A DNA stretch of 64,000 nucleotides from Nitrospirota bacterium (GTDB lineage Bacteria > Nitrospirota > UBA9217): positions 145,710 through 209,709 of the forward strand of contig CAVUHW010000034.1 of assembly GCA_963741205.1 (NCBI GenBank). Reading direction: 5' to 3'. The notes beneath the pieces are model-generated. The model saw only the letters and a program-made list of their open reading frames with translations. It did no database searches and had not been told where the DNA came from. The position numbers and the translations under genes were made by a program. This document shows, one piece after another, positions 1-4,793 of the stretch (the first letter of the stretch is position 1; the number at the start of each line of letters is the position of its first letter).

Positions 1-357
1 TCATGATCGTGATCTCGATCATGGGAATCCTCATCGCGATCGCCGCGCCGAACCTCAAAGTGTCCATTATCAGGGCGCGCGAGGCCGTGCTCAGGGAAGA
101 CCTGTTCCAGATGCGCGAAGCCATCGACCAGTACTATGCTGACAACGGCAAATTCCCCCCGACGCTCAAGGACCTGATCAATGCCCAGGATCGGACGAGA
201 AGCTACCTGCGCGACATCCCCAAAGACCCCTTTACGGGCGCAGACGACTGGATCACAGTGGCGCCGGAAGGAACGGACGCGGAAGGCGGCGTCTTCGACG
301 TGCACAGCGCGAGCCCGCTTCTTGGCCGTGGACGGCACTGCGTACAATACCTGGTGA
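1..357 (+). CDS. Type II secretion pseudopilin (GspG/PulG-like), 5' truncated by the window edge, with a frameshift near the 3' end
   Basis: Pilin-type hydrophobic N-terminus (MIVISIMGILIAIAAP), AREAVLREDL..MREAIDQYYAD.GKFP, YLRDIPKDPFT. The typical C-terminus DGTAYNTW* lies in another frame and ends at 357. Confidence 0.8.
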
Positions 358-530
358 TTGTTCCCCACGCCCTACTTCGTCGCAAAAAACGAACGTTTCC
401 CGGGGATGACCATCAGCTCCGGTTTGTGAAGTATATTATTTATCATGGTAACCCGGCCACCCGGTTTTTTCTCCCCTGTTGCGTAAACTGACCAAAATTA
501 TAGATATCCTTCAGTGGCATAGTAATTGAA

Positions 531-1194
531 ATGTGCTTTGCTTATAAAAAGAAGGCAGGACGGCAGTCTGTCTGGATTACTAGCGAGCTATTCAGGTTCG
601 TTCCTACTGGAGGCTCAAAACAGCGGCAAGACAAAACTATATATGAGCACCGGCTGATGCTTGGCACAAAGTCGGTCGATCTGGGCGAACTTAAGTTCAA
701 AGCTCATGATGAGTACGAGGTTCCGGCGGCTATCACCATTTCCCGGGAGTCCGAGAAATGGTATGTCTCCTTCTCCTATGAGAAGCAAGGCGCGGTTTTA
801 AGCGAGCAGGAACTTCTCGAGCTTTACGGCGGCATGTCAACAGAGAGTCTTAATACCGTTACCTTGGGAATGGACCGAGGGGTTGATAATCCCGCTGGCA
901 ACGAGCGACGGATTTATGTATGACTTCTCCGGCATACAAAAGGAGCGTCTGGCAAAAAAGGATGCCGGAAGAAGAGATATCAGAGCAAATGGCAAGCGGA
1001 TCAGTGACCGCCCGCATAAGCAAGCTGCAGCGAAATCAGCCGGTGCCAGGCTTATGCTGCCAATGTGAGGCATGATTTCGCGCATAAGGCCAGCCGCAGC
1101 TCGCGGATTCACCCGCGGAGGTGTTCGTCTTCGAGGACCGCAAGGTCAAGAACATGACCAGAGTGCCAAAACCTAGGAAGTCAGCCGGCGGGAC
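531..1194 (+). pseudogene. tnpB: IS200/IS605-family TnpB remnant, 5' part (frameshifted, interrupted by IS110)
   Basis: WYVSFSYE, RuvC-I LGMDRGV, IPLATSDG, then HKAS and RuvC-II VFEDRKVKNMTRVPKP spread across several frames. Confidence 0.8.
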
Positions 1195-1336
1195 ATCCTA
1201 TAATGCCCCTGTCAAGTACAAGTTCAGCACACTGATCTTTCAACACGATGGCAAACGGCACTTAAGCAGGGCGTAGTTCGCCATATAACCCGCGATGGGC
1301 ATTCGTGCTTTTCTTCGACGATTCTCTCACTGAAGC

Positions 1337-1531
1337 GAACTTGCTCTCTCAGCGTTATATTATCCGGCGTGCCGTTGCCGCCAAGCATCCCTTATCCAGA
1401 TTCCAAGTTCTATGAGAGGCCCTGCATTGTCCCGCACGAGGTCATTTGCCTCAACGTATTGTCTCGGGCTCTCTACGTCGAAATATAATTTTCAGGGCTT
1501 CTTGCTCGGAAAACGCACGAGCAGGAAGCCC
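1337..1531 (-). ncRNA. Candidate IS110 bridge/seek RNA in the 3' non-coding end
   Basis: 5' hairpin at 1495-1531. A loop closed by the 1414-1422/1466-1473 stem carries target matches (1454-1459, 1429-1435). A loop closed by GAACTTG/CAAGTTC (1337-1343/1404-1410) carries donor matches (1386-1390, 1354-1360). Confidence 0.75.
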
Positions 1532-1555
1532 GTATTTGAGTCCTCTCGATCTAGC

Positions 1556-2846
1556 CTATGCCTTGCTATCCCCCTGGTTGAGGTATTTGGGGTCGTACGG
1601 CTCCTTCTTTTTCATCAGGGTCCAGGCAATGATCAGAAGCTTCGCTGCAAGTTTCACCCGCATCTTGGTGCCGATCCCTTTCTCCCGCTCCCGTCCCCGG
1701 ATCTTGTTCGTGTGGTAAATGATAAACTCTTTGTTGTTGAGCGAGCAGATGATCGCCGCCGGATATAGTGCATAGCGAAGATCGCCTTTCCCATGTTTGG
1801 AGATCACGGCGTGGCGCTCTGTGACGTCTTCCCGCTTCGGCTCGCGCATAGGTCGAAGCCGGCCATCTTCAAGACCTGTTTGCCGGCCGTAAAGCGCTTG
1901 GGGTCTCCAATGGCGGCGAGGACCTTGGCTGACACATCCGGACCAAACCCCGGGATCGTGAGAAGGAACGAGTACTCCGGAAACTTCAGGCAGATGTCCA
2001 CGATCTTGTCTTCAAGGTTCTTCATCGTCTCTCGGACGCGATGGAGAGCCGCCACCATGATCTGTGCCTCCACGGACACTGCTTCTCCGACGATACAGCC
2101 TATGGACTGCTTGGCAGCCCGCCATATCTGCGTAAGCCGACCTGCTGAGGCAAACTCACCTTGCCGGGCGAGACGGTCCGGCAGAATTCATCGTACTCCA
2201 TGACCGAGATCAGCGAAGGGTCCAGACAGCGGCTTACCACGTTCAGACTCGCCACTGACCCGAAGTGCTGGTCCATCTCCGGGAAGTACTGGGCCAAAAG
2301 CTGATTGCGGATGCGGACCCGAAGGCCGTGCTCCTCCTTCTTGAGCCGTTTCTTTAAGGACAACAGGCCCCGCAGGGACCGAAGATCCTCTCCCGGGCAG
2401 TCGTAGTACAGGCATTTCCCTTGGGCTATCAGGTCGGCGACATTGGCGGAATCCTTCGTGTCGTGCTTATCCCACCGGCCGTCCAGAAGCTCCCGGTTCT
2501 TTGACGTGGCCGCCGCAGATACCAGAACCACCAAGTGCCCCCCCTTGATAAGATACTCTCCCAAGGGCTTGTGGTAGTTGGCCGTGGGCTCCAAGCCGAA
2601 GACCACCTTCCGGTGGCCGTGCTGCACCTTGAGGGCGTCCGTCTGGATCAAAAGCTTCTGAAAGCCCTCATAGGTATTGTCAAAGAACATTCCTTTGTGC
2701 AGCGTCTTGCCGGCGGCCGTGCCGAAGAAAGCGTTGTGCCGTTCCTTGGCGATGTCCAGGCCGATAATCAAATACTCCGTTGAACCTCGAATCTCCTTTT
2801 GGAATCGACAAAACTGCTCGCGTCTGCTATCATTGAAATCATTCAC
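1556..2846 (-). CDS. IS110-family DEDD transposase/recombinase (two frameshifts; probable GTG start at 2846)
   Basis: IIGLDIAKERH, FGLEPTANYH, KHDTKDSANVADL, LLTIPGFGPDVSAKVLAAIGDPKRF, SRSGK, ISKHGKGDLRYALY, KLAAKLLIIAWTLMK in ORFs 2100..2864, 1804..2079 and 1556..1849. AGGAGG precedes the GTG. Confidence 0.92.
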
Positions 2847-2907
2847 AGAAACCTCCTGCCTCAAGAATTTAGTTCCCGCATGAACTTATTCTTAGCAGGA
2901 GGTTTCT
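2847..2907 (-). promoter_or_regulatory. Long hairpin covering the transposase ribosome-binding site
   Basis: Perfect 13-bp arms agaaacctcctgc (2847-2859) and gcaggaggtttct (2895-2907), with further inner pairing. Confidence 0.6.
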
Positions 2908-2984
2908 ATTTTGGATAGATTGAAAAAGAACTTCCTCTATGATTTACTGGGGAAGATCAACCTCATGCTCTATCCATATATAAC

Positions 2985-3040
2985 GTATATCCCGAACGGA
3001 TCAAAGGCCAAGGCCGGTCTCAACAAGTCCATAATTGAAG
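2985..3040 (+). pseudogene. tnpB: TnpB remnant, 3' part after the IS110 insertion
   Basis: YIPNGSKAKAGLNKSII matches the NG..AK.GLN..I motif that follows RuvC-II in TnpB. No zinc finger or RuvC-III is seen downstream. Confidence 0.75.
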
Positions 3041-3164
3041 TGATGCGGAATATCGCGTGGCGACGGATGCTATTAAACCTCTTCCTATCGAGAGTGTCTC
3101 ATTCCATTGACGGACTCCGCATATCGGAGAGGGGCGGAGATTATCCATTTCGGGAGGGAATCAT

Positions 3165-4793
3165 ATGATGTTCAGAAGGCATCTTGCCTGGGTTTTGGTT
3201 TTACTGGCTGTAGCAGCGTTGCAGGCGTGCGGAAATAACTCGAGTTCATCGGAAAGCGGGACAACTTCTCAGACAGGCGTCGTAGCAATAAAACTTACGG
3301 ACGCGCCGGGAGATTTCGATCATGTGTATATTACGGTGAAGGACATCTGGTTCCATACGAGCGACGCGGCCGATCCGCGTACGGGAGCCTGGCTCAAGTA
3401 TCCGCTCACGCAACCCGTCATCGTTGATCTCCTGGCTCTCTCGAGCGGGAACATGCAGTCCCTCTGGAACAACATCCAGCTCCCGGCAGGCACGTACCGG
3501 CAGATCAGACTGTTTTTGGAACCTACCAATCCGACCGCCGTCAACCCCGCCCCGACAGGCCACACGTATTTCAACGAGGTTGTCATCGGTTCAACGACCT
3601 CTCCCCTGTATATACCGGACGCCGACCACGGCATCATGCTGACCGGCGCGTTCGGCGTGACGGCCGGAGGCACGCTCAATCTTGCCATTGACCTCGACGC
3701 CGGCCACGACATCGTGGAATTCCACGAAGGAACGGACTTCGTCTTAAAACCGAGGCTCAACTACTTCGACCTTGACCATGTGGGCGCCATTATCGGCAAG
3801 CTCTCCACCGGCGGATCACTAACGGCCCCCCGTTTCGTGATCAAGGCCGAGCGTCTCTCCACGGAGAAGGAAATGGAAGACGCCGGCGCGGTGAGCCCTT
3901 TCCATGTGGTGAGACGCTGGACTGTTCCCAGGGCCGACGGTACGTTTATTCTCTATCCCGTATCGACGCTGGTCACCAGCACGTGGGATGTCGTGATCCG
4001 GGGCTTGAACACGGAGACCATGATCATTAAAGGGGTGCCGGTCACAAAAGGCACGACCACGGCGAACGGCACGGACCTCGCCGTCATCAGCACGACTCCG
4101 ACGAGTACCAATGACTACGCGGTCGACGGAACGATCCAGTCGCCCACGGGCGCATGGGTGCAGTTCTACCAAACCCTTCCGGGGGCCGGGGAGTACCCCT
4201 ATGAGATCCGGTTCCGCCATTTCAATCCGCTCACGGGAGGTTTCAGGAACTTCCCATTGAACAACGATCAGATCCAGGTGGCGAATTTCGTGAGCAGCGG
4301 GGCAACACTTACGTTCACGCCGGAGACCCCTGCCGGCGGCGCCGGCAATTATGGCGCCGTGGCCGACGCAATTCTGTTCAAACACAGCGACCCCATACCG
4401 GTCACTTCATCGACGACGACCGTCGCGTTCACAACGCCGCTTCAGGTGGTGTCTCCCTATAAGGGAAACAGCGTGACCGGCACGATCACCATGAACAATC
4501 CGTTAAGGATGAACAATAAGATGGACAGGGGCCGGCTCTTCGCGGTGCACGGCGGAATGATCGTCAATGCCGTCGATGTCAGCAGTCAGATGACGGGGAC
4601 GACCACCAATGCATACAGCATCGATCTGCCCGGCGGCGATGCGGCAACACCGCTTCCCGGCGCCTTCTACGGGATCGATGCGGTCGGTTGGTCCTCGACG
4701 AGCCCCCTGTTCAAGGCGATAGCGATTCCTCAGATCGTGGATGTCCGCACAGGGAACGATATTGCCACGGTGGATATGCTGCCGCTCTGGTAG
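3165..4793 (+). CDS. DUF4382-domain lipoprotein
   Basis: Lipobox LQAC, IKLTDAPGDFDHVYITV, VDLLAL..G, LPAGTYRQIRLFL. Intact 542-aa ORF with a GGAGG RBS. Confidence 0.8.
   Translation: MMFRRHLAWVLVLLAVAALQACGNNSSSSESGTTSQTGVVAIKLTDAPGDFDHVYITVKDIWFHTSDAADPRTGAWLKYPLTQPVIVDLLALSSGNMQSLWNNIQLPAGTYRQIRLFLEPTNPTAVNPAPTGHTYFNEVVIGSTTSPLYIPDADHGIMLTGAFGVTAGGTLNLAIDLDAGHDIVEFHEGTDFVLKPRLNYFDLDHVGAIIGKLSTGGSLTAPRFVIKAERLSTEKEMEDAGAVSPFHVVRRWTVPRADGTFILYPVSTLVTSTWDVVIRGLNTETMIIKGVPVTKGTTTANGTDLAVISTTPTSTNDYAVDGTIQSPTGAWVQFYQTLPGAGEYPYEIRFRHFNPLTGGFRNFPLNNDQIQVANFVSSGATLTFTPETPAGGAGNYGAVADAILFKHSDPIPVTSSTTTVAFTTPLQVVSPYKGNSVTGTITMNNPLRMNNKMDRGRLFAVHGGMIVNAVDVSSQMTGTTTNAYSIDLPGGDAATPLPGAFYGIDAVGWSSTSPLFKAIAIPQIVDVRTGNDIATVDMLPLW

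Follow-up and report, generated by a model that had tools for sequence, protein, structure and literature searches.

The bridge RNA and recombinase of IS621 have been described by Durrant et al. 2024 and Hiraizumi et al. 2024, and the literature sets out how the RNA-bearing elements of the family differ. In Durrant 2024 (PMC11208160), the bridge RNA is placed in the left end in the IS110 group and in the right end in the IS1111 group, the IS1111 group is recognized by subterminal inverted repeats of 7-17 bp, and pairing spans 8-9 nt of the bottom strand for the 5′ sides of the loops and 4-7 nt of the top strand for the 3′ sides. According to Siddiquee 2024 (PMC11187229), IS1111 transposases have 330-350 aa, with the top-strand match first and the RNA downstream, and in IS110 the transposases have 315-450 aa and the bottom-strand match comes first; the non-coding region is downstream in some groups of the IS110 family, and ISEc21 targets a conserved site within IS3-family transposase genes. 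Bridge and seek RNAs were discovered only recently, and tests have so far covered a small number of orthologues, namely IS621, ISCro4, ISEc21 and some IS1111 types. Here we describe an IS110-family insertion element from a clade remote from all of these, located in a 64,000-nt stretch of a Nitrospirota bacterium genome (GCA_963741205.1, contig CAVUHW010000034.1, positions 145,710 to 209,709), hereafter the window. A preliminary description of the window, made from the letters alone, had proposed that the 3′ end of the element holds a readable bridge RNA, and we conclude that this end very probably does encode a genuine bridge RNA gene.

The element is 1788 bp long and occupies positions 1195-2982 on the minus strand, with the left end TATATATGG... 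and the right end ...TATAGGAT. The borders were set by uninterrupted copies of the repeat that flanks the element, by a second copy of the element (copy 2) and by the ends kept in relatives. On the minus strand, the left junction reads ...GGATATAC-GT-TATATATGG, with the core dinucleotide GT at 2984-2983, and the right junction reads ...TATAGGAT-GT-CCCGCC, with GT at 1194-1193. Both flanks are parts of a repeat of which about 18 further, element-free copies are present in the same genome. In the empty copies, the matches to the left and right flanks overlapped by exactly 2 nt, GT, and the empty site in copy L005 reads ...GGGATATAC-GT-CCCGCC... on the element's strand. Because the empty copies join at GT, the pre-insertion target and the circle junction that had been reconstructed from the window were correct, and the insertion took place without target duplication beyond the shared core. 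GT was present at both element ends in relatives as well, and the close relatives all end at ...TATAGGAT followed by GT and begin with TATATA directly after GT.

The flanking repeat is a tnpB gene, with a match of 66.7 bits to PF07282 (Cas12f1-like TNB domain) in the uninterrupted copy L005, and the insertion site of the window element, ATAC-GT-CCCGC, lies within one copy of this multicopy gene. The 5′ part of the interrupted copy (539-1194, plus strand) has 17 other copies that are 90-93% identical, and the continuation on the other side of the element (2983-3039) extends for 57 nt before the similarity ends. A joint of 1192 to 2983 was present in contigs of four of four metagenome DNA runs. 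It was considered as excision of the window copy and rejected, as these contigs carried many other differences from the window and were read as other, empty tnpB copies. The L005 tnpB copy itself (597-1968) consists of two overlapping open reading frames (ORFs), where a frameshift or an assembly error is possible.

The relatives were drawn from one genome per species, which gave 80 loci with a homologous gene in Nitrospirota, Thermodesulfovibrionales, Desulfobacterota and a few others. A covariance model, R1, was built on a 177-nt core (1488-1312, alignment A3), which the window matched on the minus strand with 178.6 bits. An R1 match was found downstream of the gene and on the gene's strand in 72 of the 80 loci, in agreement with the downstream RNA that had been proposed. 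Six of the eight loci missed by the model (L036, L040, L074, L082, L083 and L087) have just 0-93 nt of downstream DNA, and two (L052 and L066) gave no match despite 1500 nt. In the window, the RNA extends from 68 to 244 nt beyond the recombinase stop codon; in most members outside the close Nitrospirota relatives, 4-17 nt separate the stop codon from the core. The close relatives align through the entire 3′ end.

The consensus is composed of a closing helix, P1, followed by a target arm (stem, internal loop and inner hairpin) and a donor arm (outer stem, second short stem, internal loop and inner hairpin). P1 is formed by CGACG (1480-1476) and CGTCG (1320-1316); five of its five pairs have changed on both sides. 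The target-loop stem pairs GAGAGCCC (1473-1466) with GGGCCTCTC (1422-1414), and the loop holds an inner hairpin, TGAGGC ... GACCTCG (1437-1453), found both in the consensus fold and on a MAFFT alignment. In the donor arm, the outer stem pairs GAACTTG (1410-1404) with CAAGTTC (1343-1337), with both sides changed in five of seven pairs, and the inner hairpin, GGCGGC ... GCACGCC (1366-1382), has changed on both sides in four of six. Over the 75 rows of the model alignment, 94.7% of the cells were paired compared to 32-48% with slid partners, 20 of 37 pairs had changed on both sides, and none of 500 shuffles reached any of these measures. RNAalifold was also run on 39 diverse members aligned by MAFFT without the model, and again gave P1 and the two inner hairpins, with compensatory changes. 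G-U pairs were frequent, for example in 64 of 69 sequences at columns 127-254, which fits a single strand of minus-strand polarity.

The base of the target-loop stem was less certain than had been proposed. The CCC/GGG part is secure, but the GAGAG/CTCTC part is contested by a long-range helix: on the MAFFT alignment, the strand at 1417-1411 (TCTCACT, also given as TCTCATA) paired with AGTGAGA (1331-1325) and not with the upstream GAGAG. The columns of the 3′ strand of this helix are unpaired in the model, and on the model alignment 94.1% of its cells were paired and five of seven pairs had changed on both sides. The pairs of the target-loop stem are nearly invariant, with no change on both sides in any of the five GAGAG/CTCTC pairs, and L067 and L071 break two of these yet keep the long-range helix, leaving the base of the stem uncertain. 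The shared CTCTC could act as a switch between two conformations, or the target loop could be closed by CCC/GGG alone.

After the stop codon and ahead of the RNA core stands a hairpin with 14-nt arms that are 93% complementary (1531-1518 with 1508-1495). This had been taken for the 5′ part of the RNA, a reading that did not hold: the hairpin is confined to close relatives from Nitrospirota, has been lost by deletion in L013 and L014, and is missing in most of the remaining relatives. It was likewise rejected as a counterpart of the IS621 5′ stem-loop, being lineage-specific and outside the conserved RNA. At L060, a second, weak model match (1431-1544, 22.2 bits) stands directly upstream of the full RNA and may have arisen by partial duplication of the target arm.

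The two internal loops hold the segments that had been proposed as guides, and all of these, like the two stems around them, were confirmed at the proposed positions: ATACGT at 1459-1454 within the left target guide (LTG, 1463-1454), the right target guide (RTG) GCGGGAC at 1435-1429, the left donor guide (LDG) GGATG at 1390-1386 and the right donor guide (RDG) ATATAAC at 1360-1354. ATACGT is the left target plus the core, and GCGGGAC is the reverse complement of GT-CCCGC. The target guides were compared with the flanks in a set of 74 RNA-bearing elements, from 72 loci plus the window and copy 2; a pattern search located the left junction in 60 of them and the right junction in 63. The 14 left and 11 right sides without a junction were dropped, the left ones including L025 and L028 (junctions without GT), and so were 11 left and three right sides in which the outer 20 nt of flank shared 60% identity or more with an earlier row of the set.

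The LTG followed the element's own left flank over eight positions and the RTG followed the right flank over four. With 49 independent insertions, the LTG matched at positions −1 to −8 in 49, 43, 39, 43, 31, 38, 27 and 30 cases, compared to shuffled means of 40, 27.6, 20.7, 19.3, 13.3, 24.1, 14.6 and 18.8; the total of 300 matches, compared to 178.4 (sd 8.8), was reached by none of 5000 shuffles. With 60 independent insertions, the RTG matched at +1 to +4 in 58, 59, 56 and 33 cases, compared to shuffled means of 47.1, 47.2, 43.8 and 22.5; the observed counts were reached by 0, 0, 0 and 4 of 5000 shuffles, and at +5 to +8 the RTG was at chance level. The covariation thus supports an LTG of up to 8 nt plus the core in relatives and an RTG of the core plus 4 nt. 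In seven elements (L068, L075, L049, L061, L088, L080 and L029), the LTG agreed with all 10 flank bases, and the RTG of L020 matched GT plus 7. In the window element, the LTG matched the flank at −1 to −4 and −8, and the RTG matched at +1 to +5.

Copy 2 of the element, on contig C6, is 85% identical to the window copy (copy 1) and begins at the same base. The two copies differ mainly in the guide columns, and each agrees with its own left flank: copy 1 has ATACGT at ATAC-GT, and copy 2 has CAACGT at CAAC-GT. The RTG of copy 2 predicts a right flank beginning GT-CTCCAC. The rest of its right side was on no other contig, and the intergenic part of its left flank was unconserved in 40 other genomes (genus to phylum), where the query matched up to base 142 only.

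The donor loop could be compared with the ends of the elements, and here, in all of the 68 elements compared, the variable base of the LDG was the same as right-end base −3. The right end TAGGAT occurred with the LDG GGATG in 56 elements, TAGTAT with GGTAT in six, TAGAAT with GGAAT in five and TAGCAT with GGCAT in one, which is at least three separate changes. In the window, GGATG is the right terminus GGAT plus the first core base. The 7-nt RDG match was upheld in part. Its last five bases, ATAAC ([G/A]TAAC in the family), are conserved, but a guide of 7 nt is not, and the window match may consist of the five supported bases and two more by chance.

The preliminary description had rested its case on four short matches in the expected order. 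When the 361-nt end was shuffled 200,000 times, all four were found together twice and never in the expected order, which places them beyond chance, but the motif lengths were chosen afterwards and the numbers are a rough guide only. Since this test was made after the fact, the decisive support for the bridge RNA, target loop first and donor loop second, is the covariation in relatives.

Several observations weigh against a bridge RNA with these guides. The structure counts come from an alignment that was fitted to the model, and the relatives are kin whose guide lineages were still shared, so that the shuffle tests overstate independence. Folding 1555-1195 (361 nt) as a single sequence gave an unremarkable z of −1.06, which was uninformative, and a comparison with Rfam 15, with E of up to 1 allowed, was empty for positions 1-4000 of the window and for the tnpB copy; Rfam appears to contain no model that recognizes this RNA and could serve as a curated reference. 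As regards expression, no minus-strand promoter-like site was found inside the element, and none of the listed sequencing runs containing the stretch was recorded as RNA. On the donor side, the left end is invariant in relatives (GT-TATATA), which gives the RDG no variation to follow, and the RDG bases 5′ of [G/A]TAAC vary freely. The second core base is also mismatched in the LDG, as GGATG is followed by C or A and the donor has GT. On the target side, the RTG of L028 mismatches its own right flank, and in L025 and L028 the LTG ends in AT and not GT, the left junction has GA or AG before TATATAT and the right junction keeps GT; this sublineage could have a shifted or mismatched core. Finally, 16 exact ATACGTCCCGC sites in the genome are still unoccupied, 14 of them in tnpB copies, and both copies of the element in this genome have a recombinase gene that is broken in the assembly and may be inactive.

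The last two points bear on a rival explanation, namely that the element and its RNA gene are genuine but that the window copy is a dead relic whose guides merely record its last jump. We regard this as a serious possibility, rated a little below even. The DEDD recombinase (transposase) gene occupies 2846-1556 on the minus strand, with a GTG start at 2846 and a TAG stop at 1558-1556, as delimited by the PF01548 and PF02371 domains, the alignment to copy 2 and the 430-aa relatives. Compared to copy 2, the gene has two 1-nt deletions in the assembly, near 2142 and 1807. Copy 2 in turn has an in-frame TAG and its contig ends inside the RNA, and a third copy, on contig C30, is a short truncated remnant. 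The empty target sites point the same way, with only a single full insertion into the tnpB family in the whole genome. On the other side, the first frameshift is not universal. An extra G behind 2141, the place of this frameshift, was present in contigs of three of four soil-metagenome runs, so that the break may reflect variation between strains or a misassembly of a short run of G; some single-base deletions of the assembly may be errors at short homopolymers. The catalytic motifs GLDIAKE, GLEPT, DKHDTKD and RSGK are intact in the translated pieces of the window gene, and the 178.6 bits of the window RNA fall inside the range of relatives with intact genes (161-201.6 bits).

The protein is that of an IS110-family recombinase. 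Pfam matches on the pieces of the window gene were DEDD_Tnp_IS110 (PF01548, 70.7 bits) and Transposase_20 (PF02371, 44.4 bits), and within the SG motif, 15 relatives all had G339 and nearly all had S338. There were 5197 related proteins at E ≤ 0.001; those among the matches listed were 427-438 aa long, mostly 430 aa, as had been estimated for the window gene, and the few with a name were 'IS110 family transposase' from Nitrospirota. One intact relative of 430 aa, P0002, scored 154.7 bits against NF033542, 'IS110 family RNA-guided transposase' (cut-off 140). Its matches in the PDB were remote, namely the IS621 transposase (E = 5.5e-17, in two partial matches) and the ISCro4 transposase (E = 1.6e-14), and compared to these it has about 100 extra residues between the two domains. 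Among 72,556 plasmids, the best relatives were at most about 29% identical.

A second explanation takes the position of the RNA as its starting point and holds that this is a seekRNA element of the IS1111 type, which we consider improbable. The long non-coding end is indeed the right end, with 361 nt compared to about 136 nt at the left, and in Durrant 2024 and Siddiquee 2024 a downstream RNA belongs to the IS1111 group; the window RNA does not lie in the left end, upstream of the gene, as in the IS110 group. This is one of four IS1111 features, and the other three are absent. No inverted repeat was found between the two termini at seed 7, as the preliminary description had noted, and hence none of 7-17 bp in a subterminal position; a 28-nt imperfect inverted repeat, I1 (71%), was rejected as a subterminal repeat, as its left arm is an arm of the ribosome-binding-site hairpin, 75-100 nt inside the element. 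The protein has 430 aa instead of 330-350. The guide that pairs with the bottom strand, the LTG, is 5′ of the RTG, which pairs with the top strand, and this is the IS110 order and the reverse of IS1111. A long 5′ and a short 3′ guide also agree with the IS110 bridge RNAs of Durrant 2024, and a downstream non-coding region occurs in some IS110-family groups according to Siddiquee 2024. The element is thus a member of the IS110-family bridge-RNA kind, one that may already be catalogued and that was set against IS1111 by these criteria.

It is very improbable that the conserved 3′ end acts as DNA, as recombinase-binding sites or single-strand hairpins with a likeness to the target that stems from the resemblance of ends and targets in site-specific recombination: although the run records and the lack of an internal promoter would suit this, as would guides that lie 160-270 nt from the right terminus within the classical non-coding end, six helices are kept by compensatory changes, the frequent G-U pairs would be A-C mismatches on the other strand, guide segments held in loops in two orientations, same-sense when 5′ and reverse-complementary when 3′, would be needless for a double-stranded protein site, and experiments on IS621 and ISEc21 have shown that this architecture works as RNA there.

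With the bridge RNA as the preferred reading, a mechanism can be proposed, in part by homology with IS621 and ISEc21. The element would be excised as a circle, in which ...TATAGGAT-GT-TATATA... would form the donor. The same junction would create a sigma-70 promoter, as it would bring TTGACA in the right end (1215-1210) to a distance of 17 nt from TATATA (2982-2977), consisting of the remaining 15 right-end bases and GT, and a TG would stand one base ahead of the −10 hexamer; TTGACA (or TTGACG) and TATATA are kept at these places in most relatives. Such junction promoters have been demonstrated in IS621 and ISEc21. Terminator-like matches showed no excess, with three compared to a shuffle mean of 1.5. 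Since the core starts so near the stop codon in most members, the bridge RNA may be cut from the tail of the recombinase mRNA. The product would be an RNA of about 177 nt (1488-1312), closed by the CGACG/CGTCG helix and carrying two arms. The first arm would be the target-binding loop, where the LTG (...ATACGT), being the same as the top strand of the left target plus GT, would pair with the bottom strand. The second would be the donor-binding loop, where GGATG matches the right terminus and [G/A]TAAC would pair with the core and the first bases of the left end. The recombinase, with its DEDD RuvC-like domain and its C-terminal domain with the SG motif, would bind the RNA, which would hold donor and target together while strands are exchanged at GT without duplication. 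The window copy did land in a tnpB gene that agrees with its own guides. By analogy with its family the recombinase may be reprogrammable, as had been suggested, with the proviso that the window gene is frameshifted in the assembly.

A perfect 13-bp hairpin (2907-2895 with 2859-2847, minus strand, 100% complementary) precedes the start codon of the recombinase gene. The GGAGG ribosome-binding site is part of the paired sequence, both arms are kept in relatives, and the hairpin may limit translation of the recombinase. A subgroup from Desulfatiglandales (L048 at 2860-3822, and L049, L050, L053, L057 and L059) has a 320-aa ORF between the recombinase gene and the bridge RNA, which there are about 1.1 kb apart. 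The ORF matched Toprim_2 (53.3 bits) and DUF3991 (28.9 bits) and looks like a passenger gene inside the element.

Viewed from the host genome, this is a bridge-RNA element aimed at a conserved site within a multicopy tnpB gene. An aim of the whole clade at tnpB genes was rejected, as tblastn of the two L005 tnpB ORFs against the 80 loci gave no matches, and judged from titles only, no paper on IS110 elements that insert into tnpB genes was found. L018 has a second, solitary right end (TTGACAGGAGACACTATAGGATGT then CCCTAA) about 160 nt beyond the element's own right end and about 258 nt past the end of the RNA, which appears to be left over from another insertion, at a similar site nearby. In the right flanks of L038, L043, L063 and L090, GTCCCC plus a few bases is directly repeated once or twice, and the preferred targets of these elements may themselves be short tandem repeats. 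L020, L021 and L022 are three copies in one genome with the same right-flank sequence, which includes the palindrome GTTATTCCGC...GCGGAATAAC and suggests a REP-like repeated target.

It is reasonable to call the clade uncharacterized, as had been suspected: its plasmid relatives are at most about 29% identical and IS621 is distant. A literature search for 'bridge RNA' and 'Nitrospir' returned no relevant paper, just one unrelated review. A further-reaching view is that this is an independent IS110-type clade of Nitrospirota, Desulfobacterota and others, in which an IS621-like RNA moved 3′ of the gene separately from IS1111 and is cut from the mRNA tail, the long-range helix serves as a switch that closes or opens the target loop, and natural reprogramming led onto tnpB, with one RNA-guided element parasitizing another. 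Taken as a whole, we consider this possible but rather unlikely. The mixture of IS110- and IS1111-group features in the clade does bear on how the RNA moved between element ends. Dozens of natural retargeting events amount almost to a programming table, in which the LTG reads up to 8 nt plus the core, the RTG 3-4 nt plus the core, the LDG 4 nt and the RDG 3 nt plus the core. The known mechanism is left unchanged, and the value lies in a well-documented new orthologue family and not in a new principle.

ISPpu9/Ssr9 of Pseudomonas putida (NAR 2025) is an IS110-family element that inserts in repeats, and its transposase gene is followed by a small-RNA gene; the element targets REP sequences in other hosts and is likened to the window element by description only. 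The IS1111 seekRNA elements ISEc11, ISPa11 and ISKpn4 have subterminal inverted repeats, transposases of 330-350 aa and the top-strand match first, none of which is found in the window element. IS621 has in common with the window element a DEDD recombinase with the PF02371 C-terminal domain, an RNA of about 177 nt with the target loop before the donor loop, a 2-nt core within the guides and the potential for a promoter by end joining in the circle, which for the window element is predicted. The two differ in that the IS621 RNA lies in the left end and that of the window 3′ of the gene, and in that the core is CT in IS621 and GT in the window. In the window RNA, unlike in IS621, P1 encloses both arms, a 5′ stem-loop like that of IS621 is not conserved in the clade, and the proteins of the clade are about 100 aa longer, with the extra length between the two domains. 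ISEc21 has its non-coding region upstream, a transposase of 358 aa and a seekRNA of 58-74 nt that covers the target-binding part only. It resembles the window element in having the bottom-strand match 5′ of the top-strand match, in a circle-junction promoter, which was shown for ISEc21 and is predicted here, and in a target within the transposase gene of another insertion sequence, which is of the IS3 family in the case of ISEc21 and a tnpB gene in the case of the window element.

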